Counted from the first letter of the stretch, positions 15,324-32,000 are shown. The stretch: DNA of 32,000 nt from Candidatus Saccharimonadota bacterium (GCA_016699955.1 CP064993.1:360001-392000), one strand, 5' to 3'. The notes: generated by a model from the letters alone, not told the origin. Made by a program: numbers and translations.

Positions 15324-15339
15324 TGCCCTGTGCTCCGAC

Positions 15340-15747: not shown

Positions 15748-17148
15748 GTGGCAACCATAGTAGATTGTGACCGGCTTTGGCAAACAGTGCTCGGCGACAT
15801 AGAGATATCTCTTTCGCGCGCTAACTATATGACGTGGTTTAAAAATACCCATCTTCTTTCTGTAGACGAGGGGCATGCAGTGGTTGGCGTGCAGAATGTT
15901 TTCGTTAAACAGCAGCTTGAAAAAAAATATCGGGAGTTTATAACTGAAACATTACAAAAAACCGATGCTGGTACTGTGACGGTAGATTTTAAGATTCACA
16001 CAAGCTCTGCCCGTAAAGACACGCTAGACGAGCCAGTTGTGCTCGGAGACGCCCGCGCGGCGCAAGTTTCGCACCAGCAGACACCCACGGCGCGCAATTT
16101 TCGCCCCGGTAGCTCCCTGGCTCACCCATACCGTCAAGGAGTCAATGAAAAGTATACTTTTGAAAACTTTATTGTTGGGTCTGGCAACGAACTTGCCTAT
16201 GCTGCCTGTCAGGCGGTCGCCACCGACCCCGGCAACAAGTACAACCCGCTTTTTTTGTATGGCGGAGCTGGTATAGGAAAAACTCACCTTATACAGGCCG
16301 TTGGTAACGCGGTGCTCGACCGCCGACCCGGTTCTCATGTCGTGTATGTGTCAAGTGAGCAGTTCGTTCAGGAGTTTGTTGACGCGCTTCGTTTCAAAAA
16401 AAACACAGATTTTGCGGATTATTACCGCGGGGCTGATGTACTAATTGTTGACGATGTGCAGTTTTTGGCTGGCAAAGAGAAAATTCAGGAGGAGTTTTTC
16501 CATACCTTTAACGCTCTTCACCAAGCAAATAAACAAATCATTATTAGTAGTGACAAGCCACCGCGCGAAATCCCAACCTTAGAAGAACGCCTCCGTAGTC
16601 GGTTTGTTTGGGGTATGAGTATAGATATGCAAAACCCCGACTTCGAAACCCGTTGCGCCATTATCCAGTCAAAAGCTGAAGATAAAGACACTACCCTGCC
16701 TCATGATGTCGTTGAGTTTCTGTCCAGCCAGTTCCAAACAAACATCCGCGAGCTCGAGGGTGCGCTCAACCAGGTTTTGGCTTTTTGTGAAATGCGCGGT
16801 CTTGCACCAAACCTAGCGATTGTCACCGGGCTACTCGGTTCGTCAAAGGGACGGCCAAAACATCTCAGTGCTCGCCAAATTGTTGAGCGCTGTGCAAAGT
16901 ATTACCAGATTTCACTCGACGATATTTTGAGCCCTAAGCGAGACAAGGATATTGTTGTCCCTAGACAGGTCGCAATGTATTTACTTCGGAGTGAGCTACA
17001 CCTTAGTTTTCCTAAAATTGCTCATGAGCTCGGCCGCAAAGACCACACTACTGCCATTCATTCGGTCGATAAAATCAGGAAAGAAACCGACCTTGACCCC
17101 GCTATGAGAACTATTATTGCGGATATTAAGGAGCATTTATATGCATAA
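15748..17148 (+). CDS. dnaA: Chromosomal replication initiator protein DnaA
   Basis: AAA+ Walker A is GGAGIGKTHL and Walker B is LIVDDVQFL. Also has RSRFVWGMSIDMQNPDFETR and the C-terminal DNA-binding HTTAIHSVDKI. I prefer the GTG at 15748 (GGAG 6 nt upstream); the track's TTG at 15736 is an alternative. Confidence 0.95.
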   Translation: MATIVDCDRLWQTVLGDIEISLSRANYMTWFKNTHLLSVDEGHAVVGVQNVFVKQQLEKKYREFITETLQKTDAGTVTVDFKIHTSSARKDTLDEPVVLGDARAAQVSHQQTPTARNFRPGSSLAHPYRQGVNEKYTFENFIVGSGNELAYAACQAVATDPGNKYNPLFLYGGAGIGKTHLIQAVGNAVLDRRPGSHVVYVSSEQFVQEFVDALRFKKNTDFADYYRGADVLIVDDVQFLAGKEKIQEEFFHTFNALHQANKQIIISSDKPPREIPTLEERLRSRFVWGMSIDMQNPDFETRCAIIQSKAEDKDTTLPHDVVEFLSSQFQTNIRELEGALNQVLAFCEMRGLAPNLAIVTGLLGSSKGRPKHLSARQIVERCAKYYQISLDDILSPKRDKDIVVPRQVAMYLLRSELHLSFPKIAHELGRKDHTTAIHSVDKIRKETDLDPAMRTIIADIKEHLYA

Positions 17149-17433
17149 TGTAAGCCGGGTGTTGTGGAGTAATGGGGGTTTGTTTGTGGAAAAAGGATGG
17201 GTTTTTGTTGGCTTTTTCCACCACTCACGATGTTTTGTTTTGGGGGTTGGGGACTTCTTACGTGTTTATACTCCTAGTGCCCCCTGCCGTGTGCACTGTG
17301 TTATCCCCCTCATTTTTTCGTATTTTCTCTCTGTTACGAGCGCGTTATCCCCTTCTTCCACAGGGCCTATAATAAGGGCTATTATTGGTAAAAATGAAAT
17401 TATTTATAATCAACTAAGTGGAAGGGTGTATTG
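17149..17433. other. oriC part 2 (dnaA-dnaN spacer): DnaA-box-like sites plus AT-rich candidate unwinding element
   Basis: Inverted pair GTGGAAAAAG (17186-17195) and CTTTTTCCAC (17212-17221). TTATCCCCC at 17301-17309 and TTATCCCCT at 17345-17353. AT-rich stretch ctataataagggctattattggtaaaaatgaaattatttataat at about 17367-17410. Confidence 0.6.
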
Positions 17434-18525
17434 ATGAAGCTAAAAGTAACCCAAGAAAACCTATCGAAAGCACTCGGGCACGTTTCACGTGTTGCCAATA
17501 CTAGAGGGACATTACCAATTCTCGCAAATGTACTCATAGCAGTAGAAGATAATCGTCTAAAACTTTCAACAACCAATCTCGACATAGCAATCTCCAGTAC
17601 AATTGGGGCTCAAATACAAACCGAAGGAACTACAACAGTTCCTGCTCGGCTTTTTCAAGAACTTGTCTCGGGTTTACCAAATGGTGTGATTGAACTGGAA
17701 TTAGATGAGCAGAGACTGAAAATTTCAGCAGAACACTACAAGTCAGTTATAAATGGTGTTAGCTCCGAAGAGTTCCCGGTAATGCCAGCGATAGATAAAG
17801 GAAAAACCTGGAGTGTCCCTGCCCCGCTCATGAAAGCAGCGCTCCAACAGGTGCTTTTTGCAGCGTCCAACGACGAAAGCCGGCCGGTGCTAACAGGAGT
17901 TGCTGTGCAGACTTTAGAGGGTGTTCTGTACCTTGCAACAACGGACAGCTATCGTCTTGCGGAAAAACGGCTCAGTACTATTAAAGAGGACGTCAATCTT
18001 CTTATACCGGCTTCTGCGCTGCATGACGTACTTCGGATTATTACAGATCAAGACGAAGACATTACCGTCACCTGCGACGAGCAACAAGTTTTGTTTAAAG
18101 TTGGTGACGTGGAACTGGTAGCAAGGCTAATAGAAGGTAATTATCCCGACTACCGCAAACTTATTCCCTCGACATTCTCCACAACCGCGCTCATTCCGCG
18201 CGCAGAACTGGTGAATATTGTAAAAGTGACAAGTTTGTTTGCGCGCGAAAGTGCCGGAAGTGTTGTTATGAGTGTTGACGAGGCAAGTCAAAGTGTGTGG
18301 ATTCGTGCCGTTGCTTCACAACTTGGTGAAAATAACGCCACAACATCGGTGAAGGCAGAAGGGTCTGGCTCAATCACACTCAATTCAAGGTACCTTCTTG
18401 AGGCGCTGCAAGCCATGACCGGAAAAGATGTGCAAATTGGTTTTAATGGTAAGGTTGAAGCGGTACTTCTTTCAGATCCTAGCCAAGAAGATTATAAACA
18501 CATTATCATGCCCCTGAAGAGCTAG
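17434..18525 (+). CDS. dnaN: DNA polymerase III beta sliding clamp
   Basis: MKLKVTQENLSKAL...TLPILANVLI, RPVLTGV and TDSYRLA motifs, and the C-terminal IIMPLK. A GAAGGG SD lies 7 nt upstream of the ATG at 17434. Confidence 0.93.
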   Translation: MKLKVTQENLSKALGHVSRVANTRGTLPILANVLIAVEDNRLKLSTTNLDIAISSTIGAQIQTEGTTTVPARLFQELVSGLPNGVIELELDEQRLKISAEHYKSVINGVSSEEFPVMPAIDKGKTWSVPAPLMKAALQQVLFAASNDESRPVLTGVAVQTLEGVLYLATTDSYRLAEKRLSTIKEDVNLLIPASALHDVLRIITDQDEDITVTCDEQQVLFKVGDVELVARLIEGNYPDYRKLIPSTFSTTALIPRAELVNIVKVTSLFARESAGSVVMSVDEASQSVWIRAVASQLGENNATTSVKAEGSGSITLNSRYLLEALQAMTGKDVQIGFNGKVEAVLLSDPSQEDYKHIIMPLKS

Positions 18526-18549: not shown

Positions 18550-19614
18550 ATGATTTCGAGCATACGCCTGCAACAATTTCGGTCCTACCTAGACACAAAA
18601 TTTGAATTTGGTGACGGGGTAAATGTTATTGTTGGGTCAAATGGCAGCGGCAAAACCAACCTACTTGAGGCGGTGCTTGTCGCTGCGCGCGGTGGCTCTT
18701 ACCGCGTAGCAGACGCCGATCTAATCCATTTTGGAAAAGAATGGGCAAGGCTCGATGCCTTGTTTGACGCATCTCACAACCGAACTATAAAACTAACGCC
18801 ACATGGTCTTACAAAAAAAACATACACCATTGACGACAAACAATACACTAGGCTGGCCGACAACAAAAAACACCCAGTCGTACTTTTCGAACCAAATCAC
18901 CTCCTCTTACTACAAGGGGCACCAGAGAACCGCCGCAACTATCTTGATGATATTCTCGAGCAAACCACACCAGGCTATACTAGTTTTCGGAAAAACTACA
19001 AACGGGTGCTCGCTCAACGAAATGCGCTGCTGAAACATAGAAACGCATTTGCCCACGACTACTTTCCATGGAACCTACGCCTCAGCGAACTCGGCGCTGT
19101 TATTCACCGCGCCCGCAGCGAACTTACCGCGGAGCTTCATACACAAATAGACCAACTTTACGGCGAACTATCGAAAGATAAGAAGCGAGTAACAGTGGAG
19201 TATAGTGGTCAGTTTGCCGCCGGAACTTATGAATCACAACTGCTACATGCGCTAGAGTCCAATATATCAAGAGAGATAGACAGAGGGTTTACAACTCACG
19301 GGCCGCACCGAGAAGATTTCAAGGTTTTGTTTGATGGTGTCCCGTCCACCCTTACAGCCTCACGCGGCGAAGTTCGTAGCGCCACACTTGCCCTCAAAAT
19401 ACTTGAACTACAGGTACTGGAACGCGTTAACGGTGTGAAGCCACTCCTTCTCCTCGATGACGTGTTTAGTGAGCTAGACGTTACTCGCCGAAGCGCCCTA
19501 ACAACACACCTCCAACACTACCAGACGCTCCTAACGACAACCGAAGCAGACATAGTTAAGGATGACGTTAAAAAGTACACTGTAATCTCACTTGAGGGGG
19601 CTAGAAAGCGTTAA
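18550..19614 (+). CDS. recF: DNA replication and repair protein RecF
   Basis: IRLQQFRSY, Walker A GSNGSGKTNLLEA, the signature-like SRGEVRSATLALK and Walker B LLLLDDVFSELD. The dnaA-dnaN-recF synteny is present. Confidence 0.92.
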   Translation: MISSIRLQQFRSYLDTKFEFGDGVNVIVGSNGSGKTNLLEAVLVAARGGSYRVADADLIHFGKEWARLDALFDASHNRTIKLTPHGLTKKTYTIDDKQYTRLADNKKHPVVLFEPNHLLLLQGAPENRRNYLDDILEQTTPGYTSFRKNYKRVLAQRNALLKHRNAFAHDYFPWNLRLSELGAVIHRARSELTAELHTQIDQLYGELSKDKKRVTVEYSGQFAAGTYESQLLHALESNISREIDRGFTTHGPHREDFKVLFDGVPSTLTASRGEVRSATLALKILELQVLERVNGVKPLLLLDDVFSELDVTRRSALTTHLQHYQTLLTTTEADIVKDDVKKYTVISLEGARKR

Positions 19615-20233
19615 CTGCGTCTAATACATCGGCAGGTACATCACTAGTTGAAAACACCGAATACACAAGGCGAGGCGTACCAACTCTTACCCAGCCGGCC
19701 TCAGTCTTATTCAATAATACCCGCAAGGTATCACTATTTTGGTTGAGAGGGTCAACATGAGTGAGCTTGGAGATATACCAATTCCCACGCATTAGTAATG
19801 TCCCCTCTGCTAAACTATATGAACTTTGGTTTTGTAGTTCGCTAAAGACCGCCGACTGAATTTCACCCCACTGCTCACCAATCAGCGACTTTATTTTATC
19901 GCGTGAGTATTCAGGGGTAATCGTTACACTCTGCGAATCCGCATACTTAAAGCCATCCGCATAGCCGGAAGCTCCAGAGTAAACAACTAAAACGGATGAA
20001 ATTGCTTTTGGTATACGAACAGTTTCACCGCTTTTTGCAAGTTTTTTTAGTAGCACATCTTTACCGCCAGCTTCCCTCCCAGAAACGTCGTAAATAGAGA
20101 GCGCAGAGACGTTTTGGTATATCACTGTCAGCGGACGACTATTAAGGTAGTTCCTAACAAATATAGTCAGAACTGTTAGTAAAATGAGAAATATCCCTAA
20201 GAAAAACATTGTCCGTAAGCGTAAGGGCTTCAC
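19601..20233 (-). CDS. N-terminally anchored 210-aa protein, last gene of the T4SS-like block (size and topology compatible with a VirB8/PrgL-like component; unproven)
   Basis: Single TM helix MFFLGIFLILLTVLTIFV followed by a ~170-aa ectodomain. It overlaps the upstream gene by 4 bp. No motif was recognised. Confidence 0.5.
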   Translation of the reverse strand: MKPLRLRTMFFLGIFLILLTVLTIFVRNYLNSRPLTVIYQNVSALSIYDVSGREAGGKDVLLKKLAKSGETVRIPKAISSVLVVYSGASGYADGFKYADSQSVTITPEYSRDKIKSLIGEQWGEIQSAVFSELQNQSSYSLAEGTLLMRGNWYISKLTHVDPLNQNSDTLRVLLNKTEAGWVRVGTPRLVYSVFSTSDVPADVLDAVNAF

Positions 20234-20877
20234 AAATTTTCTCCTGTTAACGGATTAGTAAAATCATCAAAACGTATGTCAAGCTGCGCGAGAGAGTAAC
20301 CATTATCAACGATCCATTGCAGCGCTTTCTGGCGACCCGTCGGGGTACTGTTACCTATGAGAAGGAATATTTTGTCAGAACCAGCGCCAACATAGCCATA
20401 ATCAATAGTGTATGGGCCAGATATATCGTAATGAGGCAGCAGTTCAATGATGGGATTTTTTGCGTGGAATGAAGCGCCTCTATTCTCAGCATTCAAGCCG
20501 CCTATCTCTTCGCGCTTAGCATTAATTCCTTCAGAATTTGACCAGGTGATAGCTTCTGGTGACTCGGGGGCGGGCAGTAGACCAATATACGTTCGGGAGG
20601 CGGAGATAGTTGTTTTTTGTGTGTCATCTGCAAAGCCAGCCTTTTTTGCAGAAAACTCGTATTCCCCGGGCGCCAGATACTGCACACCGGCAGATATTAC
20701 CTTGCCATTAAGATAAACAGTAGCATCATCTGGCGAAACGGCAACCGTTACACGAATTTTCCCCTGGCGTGAAGTGCTTGAATACAGGTTTAGCCCAATA
20801 AGTATCACAAGTAGTACGGCAAAAAATACACTGAGCGCAACAAGCCTTCGTTTGAATAGGCGCGAGTTGTCCTGCAT
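20230..20877 (-). CDS. N-terminally anchored PEGA-domain-like protein
   Basis: TM helix LVALSVFFAVLLVILIGLNL, then IRVTVAVSPDDATVYLNGKVISAGVQYLAPGEYEFSAKKAGF, which resembles a PEGA beta-sandwich. AGGAGG SD upstream. Confidence 0.5.
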   Translation of the reverse strand: MQDNSRLFKRRLVALSVFFAVLLVILIGLNLYSSTSRQGKIRVTVAVSPDDATVYLNGKVISAGVQYLAPGEYEFSAKKAGFADDTQKTTISASRTYIGLLPAPESPEAITWSNSEGINAKREEIGGLNAENRGASFHAKNPIIELLPHYDISGPYTIDYGYVGAGSDKIFLLIGNSTPTGRQKALQWIVDNGYSLAQLDIRFDDFTNPLTGENL

Positions 20878-20892: not shown

Positions 20893-22959
20893 TTATACAC
20901 CTAAATCTGTTTTAACAACGAACCACAAGAAATCTGGGTCGGCAACGCCCTCTAGGCCAGCCATGGGTGCTCTTGAACACTGTGACGCAGAAGCAATCTT
21001 AGAATAAAAGCCTGCATGTTCTCCAATGTACAAGTAGGTATGACCACTTCTGAGTGCAATGGCATAAGAATATTTTGCAAGGTCCTGGGTGGTTTTTGGT
21101 TTGATTTCCTCGTACATGTCCGGGTTTTCTCGGACGTAAGCCAGCTGACCGTCGGTATTCCTCGCTCCGTTCTTAGCTTCACCATATTTCGGGTCTACCC
21201 CACTATCCTGCATAACTCTTGTCGTAAAGCCGCCACAATCAACTCCACCTCCGTAGCAAGTATCACCCGTGTACTTGCCGTTGGTTTTTGCCGTTCGAAT
21301 TGCTTGCTCGTACGATGGTTTTTTTTCTGTGGGGTTTTCTGTCGCTTTTCGGTACTTAGGCCAGGCATAGTTTATCGCTACTTGGGCGACGCTACCCGAG
21401 CCGGTTGTTCCGCAGCCGGCTTGACTGGTTGCAGAAGTCGTCTGAGCCGATGCGGTAGGAGAAAAGAAAGAATTAACCCTTCCCCATAGGGGGGTTGTCC
21501 CCGCCCGCGCCTGAATGGGTTTTTCTCCTGATCCGACAGGTACGGCAGTCATTATGCCTTGTGCTATGCCTCGGGCGTAGACGTCTTGTTTGAATCCGGT
21601 CCGCCCAGTTTCGTTGTATACCCAAGGTACCTTGGAAAAAAGCTGCACAATCGATATATTACCCGCAGAAAGACCGGAACGCCCATCAAAGTTTAGGTCT
21701 TTCTCAATTGTGCCCGCTTCGCCAGCAGTTTTTCTAGCCTGTATCATTTTGTTGCTGTATTCTTGGCTTTTCGCGGCTACTGCCGAGTCTGAAAAGGTGG
21801 TTTTTATACCCTCATCATTTTGGCGGTAAGCGCCAACTTTCTGCGGGCTTACCCAGGATTTTTCTTTGTCACCAAACCTGCCGGTGTCTGTGTGGATACT
21901 CACTGCTATTGCTGCATTTGCATTATTTGCAATAGTAGCGCGTTCCTTAAGACTAATTGCCTCGTCTTCGGTTTCTTTAGTTACTATTACCCTATACCCC
22001 TCTGATTCAAGGATTGTCTTGGTCTGAAGTGCTACCTCCCAGACCTGCTTCCGTTCTTCAGGGTTTGTGGTTTCGCCTATATACAAGCCAGTTTCTGAAT
22101 CTTTTAAGCCAGCATCCCTCGTAGAAGCACCGGAATGACCCGGGTCAAGCACTACGACGGGTGCGTTGGAGGCGTTGCCCACTGAGCAAGAACAACCCGA
22201 AGAAGCATTTACATATGTTGCGCCAGTTTGCTGGTATTTGAGGGCTATCTCCGCTGCCTTTACGCGGGAGTCATAGGCTTTCTCTCCCGCACCCTCCATT
22301 GATAATTCGTAGTATACAACCGCCTCTCGTAAGTCGGTTTGGGTGAAACCAGCCAGCATATTTTTTTTACTGGTGGGGCTATCGTAGTTCATGTGCCACC
22401 AGACAAGATCGAGCTGAGTGGATAATTCGGAAATTGGGCCGGTAATATTTGCTTTCTGGGCTATGCCAATTACTTTACTCGCCGGAGTCCATTGTATAAG
22501 ACCCCACCCACCCTGATCACCCTTGGCATTGAAGCTAACTTGGGTGGGGTCGGTTGTTCTATCGGGAGTGAAGCCAGTTTGCGTATTAAGTGGATCACCG
22601 CCTGATTCATGAGCGATGTTACCGATAATCGCTGCAGCCTGTATTCTGCTTAGTGGCGTTCCGTCTGGAAGCTTTTTTGACAAGAAGTAGTTGTATGCGT
22701 TTACAAGATTTTCGTGGTTATTTGCTGATGTCGCCACATTGGAAGTAGGTTGGCTGCAGGTGGGTACCTCGGTAGGGTTATACCAACAAGTGTTGTAATA
22801 CATACAATTAAAATCATCTGTTGTATACGCGAGCACTGGTTTACCCTGCGAAGTGACTAAAACAATAATCCCACAAAGGACGTAGGATATTCGTCTGACA
22901 GTCAGCCAGAAAAGTGAGGTGTTATGCTGTGCGCGTGGGCGAAGTAGGGATAGTTTCAT
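20893..22959 (-). CDS. Secreted three-domain peptidoglycan hydrolase: lysozyme-like (phage-tail-lysozyme type) + N-acetylmuramoyl-L-alanine amidase (Amidase_3-like) + NlpC/P60- or CHAP-like peptidase
   Basis: AAIIGNIAHESGGDP...GGWGLIQWT for the lysozyme-like domain. VVVLDPGHSGAS...AIAVSIHTD for the amidase. VDCGGFTTRVMQDSG...SGHTYLYIGE for the Cys/His peptidase. I prefer the start at MKLSLL (ATG 22959), which overlaps the upstream TAA as TAATG. Confidence 0.75.
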   Translation of the reverse strand: MKLSLLRPRAQHNTSLFWLTVRRISYVLCGIIVLVTSQGKPVLAYTTDDFNCMYYNTCWYNPTEVPTCSQPTSNVATSANNHENLVNAYNYFLSKKLPDGTPLSRIQAAAIIGNIAHESGGDPLNTQTGFTPDRTTDPTQVSFNAKGDQGGWGLIQWTPASKVIGIAQKANITGPISELSTQLDLVWWHMNYDSPTSKKNMLAGFTQTDLREAVVYYELSMEGAGEKAYDSRVKAAEIALKYQQTGATYVNASSGCSCSVGNASNAPVVVLDPGHSGASTRDAGLKDSETGLYIGETTNPEERKQVWEVALQTKTILESEGYRVIVTKETEDEAISLKERATIANNANAAIAVSIHTDTGRFGDKEKSWVSPQKVGAYRQNDEGIKTTFSDSAVAAKSQEYSNKMIQARKTAGEAGTIEKDLNFDGRSGLSAGNISIVQLFSKVPWVYNETGRTGFKQDVYARGIAQGIMTAVPVGSGEKPIQARAGTTPLWGRVNSFFSPTASAQTTSATSQAGCGTTGSGSVAQVAINYAWPKYRKATENPTEKKPSYEQAIRTAKTNGKYTGDTCYGGGVDCGGFTTRVMQDSGVDPKYGEAKNGARNTDGQLAYVRENPDMYEEIKPKTTQDLAKYSYAIALRSGHTYLYIGEHAGFYSKIASASQCSRAPMAGLEGVADPDFLWFVVKTDLGV

Positions 22960-25900
22960 TATGGTGTTCTCCCGAGTGAATAGTGCCAGTGATTGCCTGG
23001 TCCGCCGCAAGACTCACCAAGAAAGCGAACAACATTGTATTTTTGCCCAATACTGTCGCCAAGTTGGACATTGGCCGGACAACCAAAGTCGACAGCTTGA
23101 CCTCGGCCATGTTGGCTGCCCGCGCTGTGACACTGGCCGAAGAGAGAGTTGATTTTGTAGTGGTACTGGTTACCATAATCAACGAGAAATTTAAGCAGAG
23201 AAGGATGGGGGGTAATTGTCGCCGGCATTTGGTAAGCGCAGCGCGTCGTAATACCCACCGGTTTGCCAGCCGCCATGTCTTCGAGTTGCTGGCTGGCCAG
23301 TGACCTAGTAGCGCTGTCAGCTGCTTTGTTGGAAGAATAGTCAGCTATTGTTATTTTCCCTGAGTCCCGAAGTGCCAAAATTTGTTTAGCAAGGGCGGCA
23401 ACGTCAGCCGTGCCCACGGGCGCTCCCAGATCTGAACCGGTGGGTGAGTTTGAGCCGACCGGGGCTACACCTGTTGTTACTTTGGAAAGATCCTCGAGGT
23501 GGGCGAAACTGTTTTCATAACGTCCATCAAGCCGCCAGCGGAATACTAGATCGCCAAATCCCTGAGTATTGTTTCTACCGAGATTGGATGGTGAACAGGG
23601 TAATTCTGGGTTGTCTACCACATCCCCACGGTCATCCCTTTCGATCATTCGTTGACTAAAGAGCTCTCCAAGGCTGCTAGTGAAGCATTTGCCATAGTTG
23701 GCCGCTATATCATCCGAGCGACCGCTGAGTCGTAGGTACTCTTTGTTGATAGCCATCCCATATTTGTCTTGATTATTTATGATTAACGCTTCTTCTTGCT
23801 CTGTCCAGCCAAACTGAGTGTTCCCGTAGTAGCTATCTGAACCTGCCGCCTGTGCTTTTACTGTCGGGCTGAGGTTGTTAATAAACGATCCGAAATACCG
23901 TAGTGGGTTAAGTATGGTCGTGCCAATATTGCTTATTGTCTGTAATAAGCCCGAATTTAGGCTAATCTTCATCCCTATTGCCATACGCGAAGCAAGTGAA
24001 CCGGCGTTTGTTAAGGCAAAATAACGTGTAAAGAAACTCAAGTTTTTTTGTTGGTCAGCAAGATATATGGCATCTGCTTGTTGACTAAGAACGATACTCT
24101 CGGGAGTAAGAGGAGCGCCAAACGTGATACTTCGTGATGCTTCGTTGCCCGCAATTATTCCGCCGGAGTCAACGTTATTAGCATTGTCAGTTCCCATTGA
24201 AAGCCCGCTTGTAAGCTGCCCAGCCCGGGTGTACGTGATCAATCGGGCAAGTTCCGTTAGCCCATACGTTCCCCCAATGATTGCGCCTTGTTTGACGGCG
24301 CCTACGCCTAGAGCCTTTGAGCCGATAACAAACCGTGCCATACGGGTAATTGAATTCGTCTCAACAGTAGAAAGACTATCTTTAGCAGTCTTCTTTATAA
24401 TCGACTTGGCGACCGCTGTTTCAAGCATACTCGTAAACTTAAGTTTGATGTAGCTGGTAATAAAACTTGTAACGCCTTTTTCTACCCCTTTCTCTAGTAG
24501 AACCTTGCCGCCGCCAGTAAAAATGTCAAGCAGAATGTTTCCAGCCGCCAAACCAACAACGGTGCGCATATCTGTTATGGCACTACACCCGCCCGAGACG
24601 AGTTTATTAACCGCATTGCCAGCTACTCCCCCGGGGGCAATGTTTAGGGCGTTAAGTATTGAATAGTCGTATGTACCCATTGCGTTCGCCTGCGCGCGCG
24701 GGCTATCGGAAGTATTTGGTGTTTTGCCAGCAGCTCTCTGCATGGCGTTTGAATTGCTGTAGTCACCAAATTGATCGTTCGTTGCGCCCACAGCTGTTGC
24801 CAGCGCAACAGGATCGCTGACATCAGATCTGCTACCGTGCATTTGTTGCGCGGAGACAGCCATAGTATCGTAAAAGGCCAGTTGTTGCTGATTTGACTGT
24901 TGGTCGATGGTTGAACCTGCTTTTTCCATGGAGCCGTCATAAATGATACAAAGAGGAAGAGCGATGGCAAATCCAGTGTTTATAAAGGATAGCGTGGTTC
25001 CTAGCGCACCTTCGCCGAGCGCGGCCCCCCCAGTAGCCTCAACATCCCGAATGATTTTGTCGGCCACACCATTTTTTTTGAGAGTATCATCCAGCAACTC
25101 ATCACTCGCAAGCACTGCTTTTTCTGCCTCAGATGCAGCAATAGCACCATCTTTTAGAACTGCGGTGGCGGGGGGTTCTGCAACGAATTGTGCGCCACTT
25201 ACCACGGCTGCTCTATCTCTTGCGGCTTTGAGCGCGGCACTATCTTTATCGAGACCACTGTAGCGTGACAGGATCCGGCCGGCCAAGTTGGCACCAATTC
25301 GACTCCGCAAGTTTTCCATTGCTTTTGCGCGTACTAGAAAGTTGACGTTAGTAAGCTTCATATCCTCTCGGACAGCGCGCAGAATGGTTGCTTGAATTTT
25401 AGCGTTTTCAACGTACCCCCCGAACCGTAAAGGGTCTTTCAGGTTTCCTTTAATATCCAAAACACCAGGCGGTTGCTTTATTCCATAAGTGTCGCTCCCG
25501 TACGCAATTTTTGTTAGCGTTGCGCCGTCACTTCCTCCGTAATAAAAATGAAGACCTTTTGTTTCGCCAATGTTTTCAAGAACCTTCTGTGGTCGCCACT
25601 TCTCAAAGCGGTCGATGGTTGGACCAAACCGCTTCTTTAAGGCCGTCTTTACTCGTCCATCTGCGGCTTGCACCGCCAAAGCTTCTTGAGTTGACAACAC
25701 GCTCGTGGTTGCTAGTTGACGGCTAAAGCGTGCGAAACTATATTTCATAACATTTTGCATGAAGTTCGGCAAACCAAGAGACGACAAGAAAAGCATGACA
25801 ATGACTATCACGGCAACAAGTCCTCCCACTGCCCCGCCAGCGCCAGCAATGAGCCATTTTTTAGAGCCTTTTTTTACCAGGCTGTTTGAACCTTTCAGTT

Positions 25901-26219
25901 TTTGCTTTGATCCAGTAAAACCTCGTCCGAGCTTGTTTTGCTCGTCTTGCGCTGCGTTTGGCTGGTCTGCCGAACTTCCGCCAGCATCCTCTTTATCACG
26001 TAGGGTATCTGGGCTGTCGGCTGCACGGTTGTTTTCGGCTAGTTGTTTTGCAGTCGGCTGTTCCCGGCGGGCGTTACCGGCATGTCCGTCTGGCGAGCTT
26101 TTATATAGGCGTTCAAGTTGGTCGGTTTCTGCTTCGGCACGTTCGGGGTGAACACCTAAATCATCGTGGCTCCCTGGTACGTATTGTTTGGTTGTTTCTG
26201 GGTCGTATACGCGAGGCAT
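22959..26219 (-). CDS. 1086-aa bitopic membrane protein of unknown core function with a C-terminal M15/LAS-type zinc peptidase domain
   Basis: Charged, disordered-looking N-terminal ~120 aa, the TM helix WLIAGAGGAVGGLVAVIVIVMLFLSSLGL and a long Gly/Ala/Ser-rich ectodomain. The C-terminal CHSAGSQHGRGQAVDFG ... GNHWHYS fits the H-x6-D ... H-x-H LAS metallopeptidase pattern. Confidence 0.6.
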   Translation of the reverse strand: MPRVYDPETTKQYVPGSHDDLGVHPERAEAETDQLERLYKSSPDGHAGNARREQPTAKQLAENNRAADSPDTLRDKEDAGGSSADQPNAAQDEQNKLGRGFTGSKQKLKGSNSLVKKGSKKWLIAGAGGAVGGLVAVIVIVMLFLSSLGLPNFMQNVMKYSFARFSRQLATTSVLSTQEALAVQAADGRVKTALKKRFGPTIDRFEKWRPQKVLENIGETKGLHFYYGGSDGATLTKIAYGSDTYGIKQPPGVLDIKGNLKDPLRFGGYVENAKIQATILRAVREDMKLTNVNFLVRAKAMENLRSRIGANLAGRILSRYSGLDKDSAALKAARDRAAVVSGAQFVAEPPATAVLKDGAIAASEAEKAVLASDELLDDTLKKNGVADKIIRDVEATGGAALGEGALGTTLSFINTGFAIALPLCIIYDGSMEKAGSTIDQQSNQQQLAFYDTMAVSAQQMHGSRSDVSDPVALATAVGATNDQFGDYSNSNAMQRAAGKTPNTSDSPRAQANAMGTYDYSILNALNIAPGGVAGNAVNKLVSGGCSAITDMRTVVGLAAGNILLDIFTGGGKVLLEKGVEKGVTSFITSYIKLKFTSMLETAVAKSIIKKTAKDSLSTVETNSITRMARFVIGSKALGVGAVKQGAIIGGTYGLTELARLITYTRAGQLTSGLSMGTDNANNVDSGGIIAGNEASRSITFGAPLTPESIVLSQQADAIYLADQQKNLSFFTRYFALTNAGSLASRMAIGMKISLNSGLLQTISNIGTTILNPLRYFGSFINNLSPTVKAQAAGSDSYYGNTQFGWTEQEEALIINNQDKYGMAINKEYLRLSGRSDDIAANYGKCFTSSLGELFSQRMIERDDRGDVVDNPELPCSPSNLGRNNTQGFGDLVFRWRLDGRYENSFAHLEDLSKVTTGVAPVGSNSPTGSDLGAPVGTADVAALAKQILALRDSGKITIADYSSNKAADSATRSLASQQLEDMAAGKPVGITTRCAYQMPATITPHPSLLKFLVDYGNQYHYKINSLFGQCHSAGSQHGRGQAVDFGCPANVQLGDSIGQKYNVVRFLGESCGGPGNHWHYSLGRTP

Positions 26220-26227: not shown

Positions 26228-28153
26228 CTACGAAAGATTATTCGTGCTCCCTGGGTATAATTGGTTTTGAAGATCGATTGTTCCCTGGGGCTGGGTCATT
26301 TCACCCTGCCTCATGGCTTGAACCTGTTGTGGGTTGGTGGTAATGAGGCTGGTTTCGGTGGGGCTTGCAACTATTTGCACATGAACGTGATTCTGGCCAG
26401 CAAAGAACAGCCCCTGTCCCACGGGGAATTGGCCGAGCCGTTTCTTTTCTTCTTCGGTGAGCTTAAAAACATCGCTCAGAACATCAACCGCACTACTGGA
26501 TTGTTTCAAGAGAATTTGCATACTCGCATTTGCCACAATGGCGCGACCCATCCGAGATCCCATGAAATCCTCTACATCTTGTGTAATAGTGGTAATGCCC
26601 AAGTTATATTTTCGAGCGCGTTTAGCGAGGCTGAAGAGGAAGTTTGCGCTGTCTTCGTATTTCATGAGCTGCCACGCCTCGTCAACAATCAAAATACGCT
26701 TCTTTTGGTCACCTTTTGTCTTGTTCCAGATGTAGTTTAATACAATATACATGGCAACTGGCCGGAGCTCATCTTCGAGGTCACGTATGTTAAACACAAC
26801 CAGCGGATTGTTGATATTAATATTGCTTTGTTGACTGAATATTCCAGCAAATGTACCACTGGTGTATTTGCGCAGCCTTTGAGCAAGCTGCGGCCCACTA
26901 CCGCCCATATGGAGGAGCGTGTCGTACAAATCGGCTATAGTGGGTGGTAACGACGAATGGGTCAGGGGGTCTTGGGTGATGCCAGCCTTTGCGTAGGTGT
27001 CAATAAGCGCCGCGTCAAGGTCTGCCTCCTCTGCTGGTGAAAGCGCTGGTGCAAGCGTGCTGTTTCCTCCAAGCATTTGGGCTTGAGCGCCGCCCATCAT
27101 CAGACGCAATAAACCATGCAGAGTTATGAGGTTAGAGCGCAAGGCATTATCTGCCTCCTCGTTATCAACAACTTGGGGTAGGTCAAACGGATTAATTCTT
27201 GTTGCAGAGTTAAGGCTGAGCCGGACGTAGGCACCCGCGACCGCATCGCACATGCGTTCGTACTCGTTCTCGGGGTCAATAATGAAAATTTCGGTTCCAA
27301 ACATGAGGCTCCGCAAGGCTTCAAGTTTTACTGCAAAGCTTTTTCCTGCGCCAGACTTGGCGAACACGACTGAGTTGCCGTTTTCGAGACTGAATCTGTC
27401 AAAAATGACCAATCCTGAGTTGTGCATATTGATGCCATATAAAATGCCGTTATCCTGGCTGAGATCGGCGCTGGTGAACGGGAAGCTGGTACTGATAGCG
27501 CCGGTGCTCATGTTGCGGTGAATTTGTAGCTGATCCATCATTTGCGGCACAACACTGTTGAGTCCTTGTTCTTGCTGGGAAGTCGCGGCTTTGCTGTAGA
27601 CAAGCTGCTGGCCAAGCATACTTTCTACCTTATGGCTGACAAACTCAAGCTCGTCTTGGCTGCTGGCGTAAATGGTAAAGTACAGACCAAACCTAAAGAA
27701 GAGTTCTTCGCCCACCTGCAACTTGTCGCGCATTTCTTCGGCGTCGAGAATAGCAGCTTGTTTACCCGGGTCACGTACACGACCCTTCTCGGCATCTATT
27801 TGTAAGCCTGCTTCAAGCTGAGTAACTTTTTTGCGAAGGTTTTCAAGCACAACCTGGCTTTCCACGGGGTATACGTATATAGAAAGATCCATCACTTCGT
27901 CTAAATTGACGAGGCCGCTCAGCCAGCCGGTATAGATTTGACGGGGGTACCCATAGACGTAGTAGGTGCGGGCTAGTCGTGTGCCAATCTGAAAGTATGT
28001 GCTAAAGAACTCAATACTGCTCGGTGCTATGAAGTCGCGGAGCGCCGTAATGCCCTTGCGAAAAGCCTCGCTAACCTCTGCCTGCTCACGCGCCTGCTGA
28101 TTTTGGGCGAGCGAAACCGGGTCAATAGCGGGCTGTTTCTTGCCAAAAGCCAT
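26228..28153 (-). CDS. virB4: VirB4/TraE/PrgJ-family type IV secretion ATPase
   Basis: Walker A is FAKSGAGKSFAVK and Walker B is KRILIVDEAWQLM. Also has ITTITQDVEDF and the N-terminal domain pattern FIAPSSIEF...RTYYVYGYPRQIYTGWL. AGGAGG SD upstream. Confidence 0.88.
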   Translation of the reverse strand: MAFGKKQPAIDPVSLAQNQQAREQAEVSEAFRKGITALRDFIAPSSIEFFSTYFQIGTRLARTYYVYGYPRQIYTGWLSGLVNLDEVMDLSIYVYPVESQVVLENLRKKVTQLEAGLQIDAEKGRVRDPGKQAAILDAEEMRDKLQVGEELFFRFGLYFTIYASSQDELEFVSHKVESMLGQQLVYSKAATSQQEQGLNSVVPQMMDQLQIHRNMSTGAISTSFPFTSADLSQDNGILYGINMHNSGLVIFDRFSLENGNSVVFAKSGAGKSFAVKLEALRSLMFGTEIFIIDPENEYERMCDAVAGAYVRLSLNSATRINPFDLPQVVDNEEADNALRSNLITLHGLLRLMMGGAQAQMLGGNSTLAPALSPAEEADLDAALIDTYAKAGITQDPLTHSSLPPTIADLYDTLLHMGGSGPQLAQRLRKYTSGTFAGIFSQQSNININNPLVVFNIRDLEDELRPVAMYIVLNYIWNKTKGDQKKRILIVDEAWQLMKYEDSANFLFSLAKRARKYNLGITTITQDVEDFMGSRMGRAIVANASMQILLKQSSSAVDVLSDVFKLTEEEKKRLGQFPVGQGLFFAGQNHVHVQIVASPTETSLITTNPQQVQAMRQGEMTQPQGTIDLQNQLYPGSTNNLS

Positions 28154-28260: not shown

Positions 28261-29130
28261 TCATTGGAGCTCCCTCTGCAAATGTTCCTGTGGTGCCATG
28301 CCTTGGCCTTTCTGAACGACTTCGGCAGTAAGGTCGTTAAAATTTTTCAGCTGTTGGCGCGTAGCGGTGTCTGGGTTGTATGTGTCGTAGTACAACTCGA
28401 TCAGCTCCTGTGTATCAAGAGGCAAGCCTTGTATGCCACACTGTTGCAAGCCACCAAGTACGGATTGAACGCGGTTTCGCAGCTCGTCTTTTGCTTTGGC
28501 AAGGTCAGGCTCATTAATCACAACATGGTTTTCAGTTTTATTAAACAAATCAATAAAACCATTGAAGAAGTTTTTACTTTGTGTGATTGCCTTTTCTGGG
28601 CCAGCAGCGGGTTCGAACGGGACGACTATATAGAATTTTTTGTCCATAATGTTAGTCTGTAAAGCTAACTGATCTATATAACCGATGTAATCGTCCATGA
28701 GTAAGGCAAGTAGCATGTTGTCGTGCTCAGTGCGGATTTTGTCTAGTTTCTCTATGTAAGGCTGAAGGTCTACTTTTTGCGAACGTATAAATATTTGCAT
28801 AGGGAAATATAGTGAGTTCAAAAAGCCCTGGTAGGCATATTCAGTACTCTCTTGTTCCTGGGGACTCATCAGGTCAAAATTGATGCTTTTGACCATAACA
28901 ACGGCTCGGTATGTCCCGTCGTTCATGATGACAATGCCATCGCGTATCTCGGCAATCTGAAGGGTGTTCTGCGTGCTGTTTGCGGGGGGCTGTGTTCCCT
29001 TGCCTGCTGAACCAGGGGCTGGTGCTATAGCCATGTGCGGTGGCTGAGGCGGCACGGGCTGAGGGTATGCGGCCGCAGCCATACCTTGAGAAGGCGTCTG
29101 TGGTGTGTATGGTTGCTGGTTTGGGTCCAT
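28261..29130 (-). CDS. 289-aa protein with Pro/Gln-rich N-terminus and a region resembling the VirB4 N-terminal domain, with no ATPase motifs
   Basis: IAEIRDGIVIMNDGTYRAVVMVKSINFDLMSPQEQESTEYAYQGFLNSLYFPMQIFIRSQKVD follows the same residue pattern as N-termini of Gram-positive VirB4 homologs. There is no Walker A or B. Confidence 0.45.
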   Translation of the reverse strand: MDPNQQPYTPQTPSQGMAAAAYPQPVPPQPPHMAIAPAPGSAGKGTQPPANSTQNTLQIAEIRDGIVIMNDGTYRAVVMVKSINFDLMSPQEQESTEYAYQGFLNSLYFPMQIFIRSQKVDLQPYIEKLDKIRTEHDNMLLALLMDDYIGYIDQLALQTNIMDKKFYIVVPFEPAAGPEKAITQSKNFFNGFIDLFNKTENHVVINEPDLAKAKDELRNRVQSVLGGLQQCGIQGLPLDTQELIELYYDTYNPDTATRQQLKNFNDLTAEVVQKGQGMAPQEHLQRELQ

Positions 29131-29154: not shown

Positions 29155-30291
29155 TTAGCGAAGAGATATCACAACTTCGTCGTCATCATGCCTTGTTTCT
29201 TTTGTTACCTGACGAGCGAGCGTTGCAATATTTAAATCATCATTACTTGCTAGGTTCATTATAGCAGCCCGCTTCTCTGAAGTCACTTGTGCTTTTTGGC
29301 GTTCTGCCAGCTGACGCTCTGCTTCTATGGCGGCATTTTCTTGAGCAATGCGACGCTGCTCCTCGGCAATTTCCGCCGGAGTTTTTATGTGTTTCAAATG
29401 GTCATTGGTGCTAGCCCGCGATTGATGGGCTTCCTTCAGCTGCTGTACCAACGCTTCCTCGTCGGCGGTAGGTGAAGCTGCTTGAGTAACAATGGGGGGT
29501 TCATTTGCCACGGGCATACCGGGCGACACAACTGCTGCGCTCGCAAACGTCGCTTGACCATTGACGGGTGTCGGTTGATGCATGAACCAGTAGTCGTTTT
29601 GCGGCTGCGTTGTTTGTTGAGTTGGCGTGGACTGTGACGCGGGGTCTGTCTGCATCTGCTGCATGAGCTGCTGGCGCTGGGAAGCAGCCGCGGTTTGTAT
29701 CATACTGTCAAAATGTTGAGCTATTGGGTTTGCCAGTGGGTCAAGCATGTCGTCGGTTGCACTGACATCGACACCACTAACTTCTTGTGGCAGCATTGAG
29801 CCGTCAACCAAGCGGTCAGAAGGAGCCACATTTTGATGCAGTCCGACGTCGAGGGTAACATTGACATTTTTTACCGCCCAACCTCGGCTATCAATTGTGT
29901 CAGCCAGTGCGTGCAGACGACTCCGTACTTCCGTTTGGCTCAGACCATTTGTCAGGTTGCGCTCAACCTTTTTGGGCACAGTAATTGTAACCAGTTCTTT
30001 TGCTCCACTTTGATCCCAAATGCGCTTTCGTGGCTTAAGATAGAAGCGCAACTTTGCTAGTGCCCAGACCTCAGTCGGCTGGTCTCCGTGCCACGGTATT
30101 GCTAAAAAACCGGTAAAAAGCGCGGGCGGTATAAACAGAATCAACAGAAATCCGACATTTTTTGTAACGGCAAAAAACGAGAGGTACATAAAAAATGCTG
30201 AAATTGCCGCATAAATGAATTGCCTGAGCGTCAGTGGCCCGACTAGCGTGTCTTCCGATTCAATATCCTGTAAAACCTTATACGTCGCCAT
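29155..30291 (-). CDS. PrgI-family (VirB3-like) T4SS membrane protein with a long Gln/Ala/Glu-rich C-terminal extension
   Basis: The N-terminal YKVLQDIESEDTLVGPLTLRQFIYAAISAFFMYLSFF plus a second TM matches the PrgI-family pattern. It sits immediately upstream of the virB4 region, as in Gram-positive conjugation loci. Confidence 0.65.
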   Translation of the reverse strand: MATYKVLQDIESEDTLVGPLTLRQFIYAAISAFFMYLSFFAVTKNVGFLLILFIPPALFTGFLAIPWHGDQPTEVWALAKLRFYLKPRKRIWDQSGAKELVTITVPKKVERNLTNGLSQTEVRSRLHALADTIDSRGWAVKNVNVTLDVGLHQNVAPSDRLVDGSMLPQEVSGVDVSATDDMLDPLANPIAQHFDSMIQTAAASQRQQLMQQMQTDPASQSTPTQQTTQPQNDYWFMHQPTPVNGQATFASAAVVSPGMPVANEPPIVTQAASPTADEEALVQQLKEAHQSRASTNDHLKHIKTPAEIAEEQRRIAQENAAIEAERQLAERQKAQVTSEKRAAIMNLASNDDLNIATLARQVTKETRHDDDEVVISLR

Positions 30292-30468: not shown

Positions 30469-32000
30469 TTATGATGTCGGTTGTGGACCGGGTTGCCCAG
30501 GGCCGGTCCCTTGCGGACCACCTGGCTGACCCACCATTTGACCTTGACGAGAGTCCCACTCTTTACGCCTATCCATGAATATTGGATCGGAAGATGCTCG
30601 GAGCTGCTCTTCGCGTTGACGAATAGAAATAGTAGCTCCGGTATTTGGATCGGTGTATCCTGATGGTTGTGAGGCTAAGTAGTCTGCGAGCAGATCCTTG
30701 TTCTCGCTATTGTAATAATTTACTGCTTCGCGGAAACTGGCGATATCGGCCATAATCTTCTTTTCCTCATCTTCGTCTATTGAGCCATCTGCACGTATTG
30801 CGCCCTGGTACCGAGCCTGTAGGTGCTTCGCAACCCCTTCAATCGTCTCCTTGCGTGCTCCTGCTAAGGAGCTGAACTGCATTTGGGTAACGGCGGATTC
30901 ATACATCTGGCTTGCATCGTTCATAGTTACGGCTCGTCCCTGTCCTCCGTTACTAGCTCGGAGCTCATGGAACTTCGTCAATAGATCACCGTGGCTAATG
31001 CTGCTAAATTCTTGCCGTTGAGCCTGCTTAATCGTGGCCGTCGCCTGTGCATCCGTCCAGAGGCCAGCCTGAACCATGTCCTCAACATCCTGCAGCATTT
31101 CACGCATTCCTGCTTCGCCCTCACCGTAGACAGTTTTAGATTGGACTTTTGATGCCCCAGCTACTCTTGTCATCGTGCCTGACCCTAATTGAGTTTTTAG
31201 CCCGGCCTCCAGCTCGGCTAAGGCTCGTAGGGCATCATCTCGGCTACGGGTTCTCCCTGCTGCAGTGGCTGAGCTAAGATAGGTACTAACAAAGTGCTCT
31301 TCCATCTCTCCTCGTGATTTCCCGACCCTACCTTGCGCGACACCCAAGCCTACATCATGAGCAGCCCTGAGGCCGAAGTCATCGTCTGTTGAATGGAGAA
31401 CGTCATTCTTTCTGGCTTCAGCAGCGGCTTGCTCTGACAGCGATGTACGTATTGCTTGTCGGCCGTGTTTTGATATCAGTCCCCTTATGCCCACGCCTGG
31501 GTCCCCCGCGGCACGTGCATATGCTGCAGTTTGTGCGACAATGCCTTCGCCACGGCGAGCCTGTGCATATTCGTTAAAGCGCTGCTTGCGGGAATTCTGA
31601 CGGAAGTTACTCATACGGTCGAAAACACCCTTACTTTTGTCATTGGCAAGCGAGAAAATGGTGCTCAGAAGTCCGCCGGCCAGTTTGAATCCTAGTGGTA
31701 GCAAGAAGTACGGGCCAAAGTAGAGGAGTAGTATAAACAGGTAGTTTCCTGCTTCTATGGCGGTAGCAACCCTAGCCATCACTTCGCCAGCGGCAAGTAG
31801 CCCCATGATAATGGGAAACATTACTAGCGAAGATATGAAGGTAGTCTTCCAAAAAGACCAAAGTTTTTGTGTTCCTGGCAGTACATAAGCAGCAATTGCC
31901 AGGGGAGCAAACAGAATACACAAGGCAATAATTACCCATCGAATAGCTAGTGTAATCAACCCCACGATAATTGCCAGCAGGAGTGTCCCCAGTAGACTCA
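30469..32000 (-). CDS. VirB6/TrbL/PrgH-like polytopic membrane protein with a large soluble C-terminal domain (5' end outside the window)
   Basis: The frame stays open to base 32000 (…SLLGTLLLAIIVGLITLAIRWVIIALC…). At least 5 TM helices are followed by a ~370-aa hydrophilic domain ending in a Gly/Pro/Gln-rich tail. Its position upstream of prgI-like and virB4 supports the call. Confidence 0.55.
   Translation of the reverse strand, partial: SLLGTLLLAIIVGLITLAIRWVIIALCILFAPLAIAAYVLPGTQKLWSFWKTTFISSLVMFPIIMGLLAAGEVMARVATAIEAGNYLFILLLYFGPYFLLPLGFKLAGGLLSTIFSLANDKSKGVFDRMSNFRQNSRKQRFNEYAQARRGEGIVAQTAAYARAAGDPGVGIRGLISKHGRQAIRTSLSEQAAAEARKNDVLHSTDDDFGLRAAHDVGLGVAQGRVGKSRGEMEEHFVSTYLSSATAAGRTRSRDDALRALAELEAGLKTQLGSGTMTRVAGASKVQSKTVYGEGEAGMREMLQDVEDMVQAGLWTDAQATATIKQAQRQEFSSISHGDLLTKFHELRASNGGQGRAVTMNDASQMYESAVTQMQFSSLAGARKETIEGVAKHLQARYQGAIRADGSIDEDEEKKIMADIASFREAVNYYNSENKDLLADYLASQPSGYTDPNTGATISIRQREEQLRASSDPIFMDRRKEWDSRQGQMVGQPGGPQGTGPGQPGPQPTS

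Follow-up and report, generated by a model that had tools for sequence, protein, structure and literature searches.

The DNA analysed here (the window) is a 32,000-nucleotide stretch from Candidatus Saccharimonadota bacterium (GCA_016699955.1, CP064993.1:360001-392000). It is a segment of a Saccharibacteria (TM7) chromosome that spans the replication origin, with dnaA (15736-17148), dnaN (17431-18525) and recF (18550-19614) on the plus strand. Heading towards recF is a tightly packed string of minus-strand genes that is part of a conserved, oriC-proximal type IV secretion system (T4SS) of Saccharibacteria. Two adjacent genes of this string are the subject of this report. One (22959-26219, minus) lies downstream of a VirB4-type ATPase gene and encodes a membrane-anchored protein of 1086 amino acids (aa), and the other (20893-22959, minus) encodes an exported hydrolase of 688 aa. 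Between them, the proteins carry four different predicted cell-wall-hydrolase modules, three in the 688-aa protein and one at the C-terminus of the 1086-aa protein. We consider it highly probable that the two genes encode the cell-wall-hydrolase components of this T4SS, which would open a passage for its channel and pilus.

The two genes are translationally coupled. In the sequence TAATG, the 1086-aa gene stops within the ATG at which the 688-aa gene starts; GGGAG precedes this sequence as a ribosome-binding site, and only 8 nucleotides lie between the end of the VirB4 gene and the 1086-aa gene. The open reading frame (ORF) recovered by our ORF scan for the smaller protein extends upstream to a TTG at 23010, a start that would give a 705-aa product (20893-23010, minus). 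The ATG at 22959 is the likely start, and its product is identical to a database protein (P0001).

Four predicted hydrolase modules

Related loci were collected in a scan of one genome per species, which returned 232 related places. Of these, 80 were retained, and 67 are Saccharibacteria loci with a hydrolase gene. Nearly all close relatives of the 688-aa protein come from Saccharibacteria. Its N-terminus (residues ~1-44, 22828-22959; all features of the two proteins are on the minus strand) is a predicted signal peptide or membrane anchor, as judged from a hydropathy scan and from reading the sequence, in which a basic stretch is followed by the hydrophobic segment ISYVLCGIIVLV and then by VLA-Y.

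Following the export signal is a lysozyme module of the phage phi29 gp13 type (Phage_lysozyme2; residues ~86-238, 22246-22704). With 65.4 bits (E 8e-18), the match to Pfam family PF18013 exceeds the cut-off of 28.2 and aligns residues 103-255 of the 705-aa ORF with profile positions 4-135 of 140. A profile built from 20-23 family members matches the lysozyme domain of gp13 (3csr) in the PDB near its full length, with E values of 4e-13 to 5e-12. The proposed catalytic residue is E118 (GNIAHESGG), which is conserved in 57 of 57 related modules and is aligned to the Glu of GNMQSES in 3csr. By hand count this is residue 45 of gp13, which we take to be the catalytic residue of that enzyme. The module also matches a lysin region in a family of phage tape-measure proteins.

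The second module (residues ~266-480, 21520-22164) belongs to the Amidase_3 family (PF01520), with Pfam scores of 61-65 bits against a cut-off of 27 (E 1e-17). The match spans only profile positions 1-91 to 1-110 of 174, ending past the SIH motif, because the module carries a long internal insertion. In the orthologue at locus L014, profile positions 1-173 of 174 are aligned, and the Amidase_3 domain is therefore complete. H275, E302 and H356 align with the zinc-ligand positions (DPGH, E and SIH) of the solved amidases 4rn7, 5j72 and 4m6g, and are present in 28 of 28 Saccharibacteria and 11 of 11 actinobacterial relatives. E450, in the invariant VPWVYNE of the C-terminal half (28 of 28), is likely to be the catalytic base, as suggested by its motif and conservation; it fits a P-x-x-x-x-E motif that we assume to be typical of the Amidase_3 family. 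When the C-terminal half was searched against the PDB, no solved amidase aligned, and the only match was a chance one to a poxvirus ankyrin protein.

Amidases similar to this module, including its insertion and the motif QLFSKVPW, occur as stand-alone proteins in Actinomycetota (34-43% identity over ~220 aa; L031, L036, L038-L040, L043, L044, L050, L055, L061 and L066). Most of these begin with signal or lipoprotein-like N-termini, and some are on contigs of 1.9 and 3.0 megabases. The amidase subfamily is therefore common to the epibionts and the phylum of their hosts. Membership in the Rv3717 family (NF038140), the best NCBIfam match of the window module, was rejected at 33.8 bits against a cut-off of 335; the actinobacterial relatives likewise fall below this cut-off (26-31 bits).

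The C-terminal module of the 688-aa protein (residues ~522-688, 20896-21396) matches no Pfam family at E ≤ 10, and NCBIfam returned nothing useful. An AlphaFold model computed from 23 sequences has a predicted local distance difference test (pLDDT) score of 88 and a predicted template modelling (pTM) score of 0.86. In the model, C575 (Cys66 of the segment) opens a helix (66-77) and H640 (His131) opens a strand (131-135), a predicted placement that is the papain-like arrangement. In the PDB, the best fold match is a weak one to Tse1/Tae1 (E 0.03, probability 0.9, TM 0.40-0.48), with cathepsins next. A profile of the family reaches Spr/MepS in the PDB only at E 0.3-0.5, and the equivalent modules at L022, L037, L014 and L006 score 23.5, 23.5, 21.3 and 20.4 bits on NLPC_P60 (PF00877), where the cut-off is 23. 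C575 is found in 69 of 69 sequences and H640 in 66 of 66 complete ones, and the near-invariant S657 and S659 are the only candidates for the third, polar residue of a triad. The model and these matches suggest that the module is a divergent NlpC/P60-like cysteine peptidase. Matches to peptidyl-prolyl isomerases in NCBIfam and the PDB (residues ~587-629, E 0.01-0.5) were dismissed as chance since the region lies inside the confidently modelled peptidase fold. Two Pfam matches below threshold, to DUF3313 (16.9 bits; threshold 26.1) and Fim-adh_lectin (13.2; threshold 25), were also set aside.

The fourth module, a putative LAS/M15-like zinc peptidase, forms the C-terminus of the 1086-aa protein (residues ~936-1086, 22962-23414). 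It matches no curated Pfam or NCBIfam family, M15 models included. Its assignment comes from the stretch S-Q-H1037-G-R-G-Q-A-V-D1044, followed 32 residues later by H1077-W-H1079, which is the LAS/M15 zinc signature. This motif is invariant among eight aligned sequences, and the H, D and HxH positions are kept at 7 of 7 loci. The only sequence match in the PDB is VldE (E 1), which aligns along the zinc-ligand stretch with its H301 and D308 at the corresponding positions. The structure model (pLDDT 80) matches PDB entries weakly, namely VldE (E 0.16-0.21), ChiX (E 0.23, probability 0.84) and Ply500 (E 4.7). Against a viral library, the best match is an unnamed protein (E 1.9e-3), after which come numerous proteins of the M15A/B/C, hedgehog-like and D-Ala-D-Ala carboxypeptidase kinds, with probabilities of up to 0.99. 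The fold matches are thus singly weak and mutually consistent. In the nearest full-length relatives, the module is longer.

Ahead of this module, the 1086-aa protein has one strong transmembrane segment (residues 130-148, 25776-25832), with a run of basic residues before it, and three further hydrophobic segments that are weak. Its family comprises 1249 cluster representatives at 50% identity (E ≤ 1e-3), a count that comes from a profile over the whole protein (880 positions) and hence describes the size of the family and not the spread of the M15-like module. The best 150 full-length members range from ~790 to 1710 aa. A VirB6-like label for this protein was unsupported, as a search of the family profile against the PDB gave no match.

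The M15-like module also occurs outside such large proteins. In one setting (55-57% identity) it makes up the C-terminal part of a fusion with a VirB2-like T4SS pilin (T4SS_pilin, E 5e-9; P0063 at L081:891-1745; also L082:1406-2260, and P0065), an arrangement that would display a wall peptidase away from the cell. A virB4 fragment is found two genes upstream of the fusion gene, with a gene for a 323-aa exported protein between; yidC, dnaA and dnaN are close by, and the contigs have 39-41% GC. In another setting (56-58% identity), the module forms small stand-alone secreted proteins with Ala/Arg-rich signal peptides (L084:393-1016, P0064; L085:264-815, P0062). These are encoded on short contigs of 62-65% GC, and this GC content, the only indication of their origin, suggests high-GC and possibly actinobacterial organisms.

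The preliminary description of this DNA had read four different cell-wall-cutting modules into two adjacent T4SS proteins. That observation is correct, and well beyond chance: the coordinates fit two minus-strand ORFs, and every motif quoted is found in the translations. Its lysozyme and Amidase_3 assignments are borne out by Pfam scores above the cut-offs and by alignment with solved structures. The Cys/His NlpC-P60-like assignment agrees with the papain-like model, the Tse1 match and the orthologues at or near the NLPC_P60 threshold, and the LAS/M15 assignment agrees with the zinc motif and the fold matches. The description had named missing catalytic residues as a reason for doubt; in the alignments, none of the residues proposed here is missing.

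Gene order and module exchange at related loci

The gene string of the window begins with a 498-aa polytopic membrane protein (30469-31965, minus), followed by a PrgI/VirB3-like membrane protein (29155-30291, minus), a conserved 289-aa T4SS-locus protein (28261-29130, minus) and the VirB4-type ATPase (26228-28153, minus; TraG P-loop, E 9e-28). After the 1086-aa and 688-aa genes come genes for a membrane-anchored PEGA-like protein of 215 aa (20230-20877, minus) and a membrane-anchored protein of 210 aa (19601-20233, minus), the latter being the last gene of the conserved cassette. The PrgI/VirB3 and VirB4 neighbours uphold the T4SS context proposed in the preliminary description. Homologues of the 498-aa protein at other loci are 840-1050 aa long, and alignment with them is confined to their middle and C-terminal portion (residues 324-773, for example); the 498-aa gene may be split here or may start beyond the window.

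The order is conserved at related loci, where a homologue of the 498-aa protein is followed by PrgI, the 289-aa gene, VirB4, the large protein, the hydrolase, the PEGA-like gene, the 210-aa gene, in some cases recF, and dnaN. VirB4 lies at most 6.5 kilobases upstream of the hydrolase gene in 53 of the 67 loci, and most of the others end at a contig edge. The PEGA-like gene is always next after the hydrolase gene. Of the loci inspected, which come from oral-type and other lineages, 5 of 5 have an additional small gene between those for the large protein and the hydrolase, and its product of 150-200 aa carries a membrane anchor at the N-terminus (L056:9523-10008, L046:9355-9876, L015:8070-8666, L019:7468-7923 and L041:9379-9828); the window carries no such gene.

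In a cultured relative, Southlakia epibionticum ML1, transposon-insertion sequencing (Tn-seq) showed the T4SS cluster SEML1_0006-0019 to be essential when the epibiont grows on its host; neither coupling proteins nor a relaxase can be recognised in the cluster (Wang et al. 2023, PMC10633639). The window locus is syntenic with SEML1_0004-0011. Both have the order dnaN, recF, a gene of ~210-250 aa, a PEGA-like gene, the hydrolase, a protein of ~1100 aa, VirB4, a gene of ~290 aa and PrgI, so that the 210-aa, PEGA-like, 1086-aa and 289-aa genes of the window are positional orthologues of SEML1_0004, SEML1_0005, SEML1_0007 and SEML1_0009. For SEML1_0006 (643 aa), the supplementary tables of that study (Tables S1 and S2) list glucosaminidase and phage tail lysozyme domains from Pfam and, in ECOD terms, two lysozyme-like folds and a cysteine proteinase fold; for SEML1_0007 (1113 aa), they list a Hedgehog/DD-peptidase fold at the C-terminus. 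In the Tn-seq table, SEML1_0004-0010 are all essential by the end, with SEML1_0006 and SEML1_0007 marked essential at later time points. The main text of PMC10633639 is silent on peptidoglycan, lysozyme and peptidase. A 2025 review lists a VirB1-like component in the Saccharibacteria T4SS locus (PMC12857230). The hydrolase pair and its division into three folds plus one are thus already on record in supplementary tables. Like the window pair, the S. epibionticum pair holds four hydrolase folds (3+1) in two genes, with a cysteine-type hydrolase end and a phage tail lysozyme module. The two differ in that an Amidase_3 module separates lysozyme from cysteine peptidase in the window protein, whereas in SEML1_0006 a glucosaminidase-like module precedes the lysozyme. 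As far as our literature searches go, neither the Amidase_3-containing variant nor the scale of module shuffling described below has been reported.

Among the 67 loci, the hydrolase always ends in the cysteine peptidase and the preceding modules vary, for a total of two to four modules in most architectures. These were counted with purpose-built domain models, and X denotes a module that the models do not recognise. The commonest architecture, lysozyme plus cysteine peptidase in a protein of ~405 aa, occurs at 28 loci, mostly in human-associated Nanosynbacter-like genomes. The window type (lysozyme, amidase, cysteine peptidase) occurs at 11 loci, and at four more with an extra module in front or inside. 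Six loci each have X, amidase and cysteine peptidase or lysozyme, X and cysteine peptidase; five have X and cysteine peptidase; two each have X, lysozyme and cysteine peptidase or X, lysozyme, X and cysteine peptidase; and one has the cysteine peptidase only. At the remaining two loci (L006:8361-11426 and L027:8678-11743), the M15-like, lysozyme, amidase and cysteine peptidase modules are joined in one protein of 1022 aa. The large protein upstream of this fusion still has a C-x-H-x-H tail that resembles the M15-like module, and these two loci may perhaps encode five modules.

By Pfam, the extra hydrolase modules include GDSL/SGNH esterase, GH43, beta-lactamase-like and, weakly, Rpf-like transglycosylase domains. 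The non-classical ones are found in hydrolases at L019:7889-10096, L030:8729-11899, L014:9104-11692 and L035:8717-10486, as GH43 (E 3e-50), beta-lactamase-family (E 2e-21) and GDSL/SGNH esterase domains. We did not adopt GH43 as a sign of attack on arabinogalactan. Enzymes of this family act on L-arabinofuranosides and xylosides, while mycobacterial arabinan is a D-arabinan. A GDSL/SGNH esterase domain of the type seen as an extra module in these hydrolases is also present elsewhere in the window, at residues 463-604 (E 2e-10) of a 999-aa protein (10353-13352, minus). Its gene sits between yidC and a surface-polysaccharide cluster (248-7893) that encodes a Wzm/Wzt-type ABC exporter, a GT4 glycosyltransferase and, in two genes, GDP-mannose-dehydratase/epimerase enzymes.

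The C-terminus of the large partner protein varies as well. It is a VanY-type M15 peptidase at 29 loci, M23 at seven, the window-type M15 at seven, a DHFHV type at two, and other or none at 15, where sampled examples are CHAP (L019) and GDSL (L004). For nine entries, mostly at contig ends, the large partner was not found. Two genomes carry two tandem cassettes each of four genes (large protein, hydrolase, PEGA-like, 210-aa), at L013:4392-11133 and 11262-16740 and at L075:3690-10185 and 10252-15608. The cassettes of a pair differ in their modules, with M15-like or M23 on the large protein and lysozyme, amidase and cysteine peptidase or lysozyme and cysteine peptidase in the hydrolase.

Proposed roles of the two proteins

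In the mechanism that we favour, the enzymes of both proteins would be located on the outer side of the membrane, at the secretion machine. The lysozyme would cut the glycan and the amidase the MurNAc-L-Ala bond. The M15-like module would cut L-Ala-D-Glu, by analogy with VldE and ChiX, and the NlpC/P60-like module would cut the gamma-D-Glu-diamino acid bond, by analogy with Tse1 and other NlpC/P60 enzymes, which presumably share this specificity. Up to four peptidoglycan bonds would thus be cut, which could open the way for the T4SS channel and pilus. This passage would necessarily lead through the wall of the epibiont itself, a task for which monoderm conjugation systems employ comparable enzymes, and plausibly on into that of the host cell to which it is attached; the sequence does not distinguish between the two walls. 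The preliminary description had proposed that the glycan, the stem-peptide link and the cross-links could all be cut. In the solved structures nearest to the metallopeptidase, the bond cleaved is L-Ala-D-Glu within the stem peptide and not a cross-link.

Several points weigh against assigning wall-opening enzymes to this T4SS. The four activities are assigned from sequence and models only, and a precedent for caution is PrgK, which has three predicted hydrolase modules (LytM, SLT and CHAP). Only the SLT module of PrgK is active in vitro, its LytM site is degenerate, and the LytM and CHAP modules merely damp the active muramidase (PMC11323569). Because two of three modules are inactive there, an intact-looking architecture is no proof of four activities. 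The cysteine peptidase and M15-like modules of the window have no Pfam match, and their fold matches in the PDB are weak (E 0.03 for the former, 0.16-0.23 for the latter). The M15-like module has no counterpart of the transition-state Arg294 of VldE. In its place is Cys1030, adjoining His1031, which is conserved at 5 of 7 loci. The topology of the 1086-aa protein is ambiguous, with one strong and three weak segments, so that its C-terminus is assumed to lie outside and may not. Finally, the 688-aa and 1086-aa genes are orthologues of SEML1_0006 and SEML1_0007 by synteny and domain content, not by direct sequence comparison.

The divergence of the cysteine peptidase and M15-like modules, the replaced VldE arginine, the lack of an identified third catalytic residue in the cysteine peptidase, and the PrgK precedent (PMC11323569) could together mean that at least one module is regulatory or binding and not enzymatic. 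We consider this unlikely. Unlike the situation in PrgK, no ligand or nucleophile is missing in dozens of aligned orthologues, and the invariance of all metal ligands and nucleophiles in distant orthologues, which sets these modules apart from the PrgK LytM module, is hard to explain without catalysis. Quite improbable, in our view, is a role for the two proteins as housekeeping autolysins of a reduced genome, serving growth, budding and daughter separation, with incidental adjacency to the T4SS. Amidase_3 and NlpC/P60 enzymes are classic division autolysins, and the essentiality of the S. epibionticum orthologues would suit a division role equally well. An incidental neighbourhood is nevertheless difficult to reconcile with the strictly kept position between VirB4 and the PEGA-like gene (53 of the 67 loci, those with enough flank), with translational coupling of the hydrolase gene to the upstream T4SS-locus gene, with fusion of the M15-like module to a T4SS pilin in another genome, or with duplication of the entire four-gene cassette in two genomes.

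A further reading overlaps with the one we favour and makes the breaching of the host wall the main job. Enzymes brought by the T4SS or pilus to where the two cells touch would digest the wall of the Actinobacteria host from outside, much like phage tail-tip lysins, for delivery or uptake through the host envelope. We see this as a real possibility with somewhat less than an even chance. It draws on the lysozyme, which is of the phi29 gp13 tail type and matches a tape-measure lysin region, and on the shuffling of modules among lineages, which extends to GH43, GDSL/SGNH and beta-lactamase-like domains in the hydrolase and to VanY, M23, CHAP, GDSL or window-type M15 ends on its partner. It also draws on the tandem cassettes with unlike module sets in two genomes, on the M15-like module at the C-terminus of a VirB2-like pilin, and on the presence of the amidase subfamily in Actinomycetota and of the M15-like module on high-GC contigs. 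An essential T4SS without recognisable coupling or relaxase proteins in S. epibionticum (PMC10633639) is in keeping with it, and the mode by which these parasites lyse their hosts is stated to be open (PMC11880426). All of this support is indirect. Ordinary autolysins also shuffle modules often, essentiality in co-culture does not separate the cell's own wall from that of the host, the targets of the GH43 and GDSL modules are not established, the taxonomy of the high-GC contigs is judged from GC content only, and no immunity or self-protection gene was identified. The preliminary description had favoured attack on a partner cell's wall. This reading is a plausible hypothesis, and some indirect comparative evidence leans towards an outward or host-directed role. 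A more elaborate version, which we offer tentatively and with some doubt, is a modular drill for the host wall. Interchangeable modules on the large membrane protein, the exported multi-enzyme and some pilins would digest the Actinobacteria wall from outside, their sets would track host wall chemistry, and the amidase and M15-like modules would have been exchanged with the host phylum.

How ultrasmall epibionts pass through thick host walls is an open question, and it is not known whether host lysis is physical or chemical (PMC11880426). The T4SS is essential for epibiotic life in the one genetically tested Saccharibacterium, and its cargo is not known. As T4SS hydrolase components, the 688-aa and 1086-aa proteins are the obvious candidates for its wall-openers. 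Catalytic residues are now proposed for each of the four modules, and in nature the number of modules varies from two to four or more. If the pair served only assembly in the cell's own wall, it would be an ordinary, richly equipped VirB1 analogue. The pair is of interest chiefly for the testable proposal that it cuts the host wall and for the accompanying observations on the exchange of modules.

Comparison with known systems

As expected of VirB1 analogues, the 688-aa and 1086-aa genes lie inside a VirB4 cluster and their products have an N-terminal signal or anchor. Close parallels are the hydrolases of Gram-positive conjugation systems, such as PrgK of pCF10 (LytM, SLT and CHAP) and TraG of pIP501 (SLT and CHAP). 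Like the window pair, these are exported or membrane-anchored, are encoded in VirB4-containing T4SS clusters of monoderm bacteria, and join a glycan-cutting module with cysteine and metallopeptidase modules. CwlT of ICEBs1 and TcpG of pCW3 presumably combine a glycosidase with NlpC/P60 in the same way. The core of lysozyme and cysteine peptidase, which is the commonest complete hydrolase among the related loci (28 of 67), resembles the two-domain arrangement of glycosidase and cysteine peptidase that is found in Gram-positive conjugation systems (PMC12102498). The preliminary description had placed four modules beyond the usual scale of conjugation hydrolases. PrgK alone has three predicted modules, and the claim of unusualness was overstated.

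There are differences as well. Searches of the PDB gave no sequence match between the window pair and the conjugation hydrolases, and the window lysozyme is of the gp13 type whereas PrgK and TraG have SLT modules. The metallopeptidase of the window is on a separate 1086-aa protein, unlike in PrgK-type enzymes. The window pair also adds an Amidase_3 module, and to our knowledge no T4SS hydrolase with such a module has been described. Profiles for VirB1, TrsG and CD419 are reported to miss the Saccharibacteria enzymes for the most part, and the word amidase is absent from the study concerned (PMC12102498). The Saccharibacteria T4SS differs from conjugation systems also in being chromosomal and essential and, in S. 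epibionticum, in having no recognisable relaxase or coupling proteins.

For the two divergent modules, the nearest solved structures come from other settings. The best match of the Cys-His module, Tse1/Tae1 (4eob, 4fgi and others), is a type VI peptidoglycan amidase effector of P. aeruginosa with a papain-like fold of the NlpC/P60 type and 15% identity. Tse1 is injected as a free-standing toxin and has a partner that confers immunity, whereas no immunity-like gene was identified at the window locus. VldE (Spr1875) of S. pneumoniae has the zinc ligands H301, D308 and H375 of H-x-H and cleaves L-Ala-D-Glu (PMC11667670), and ChiX of Serratia is an L-Ala-D-Glu peptidase according to its PDB title. 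Together with Ply500 of Listeria phage A500, these LAS/M15 L-Ala-D-Glu peptidases share the H-x6-D and H-x-H zinc site with the window module. The sequence match to VldE is centred on HG(K/R)G.A(I/V)DF. Taken singly, the scores of these sequence and fold matches are not significant (E 0.16-1).

The lysozyme module has its closest solved relative in the tail-tip protein gp13 of phage phi29 ('Morphogenesis protein 1'; 3csr for the lysozyme domain and 3csq for the 334-residue chain), with which it aligns over nearly the whole N-terminal domain. We understand gp13 to join its lysozyme to a LAS-fold metallopeptidase of the M23 type, and relatives with lysozyme plus M23 are also found among the homologues of the 688-aa protein (P0040, P0052 and P0053). 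As a virion protein, gp13 acts on its target cell from outside, whereas the modules of the window are distributed over two cellular proteins and are joined there by an amidase and a cysteine peptidase.

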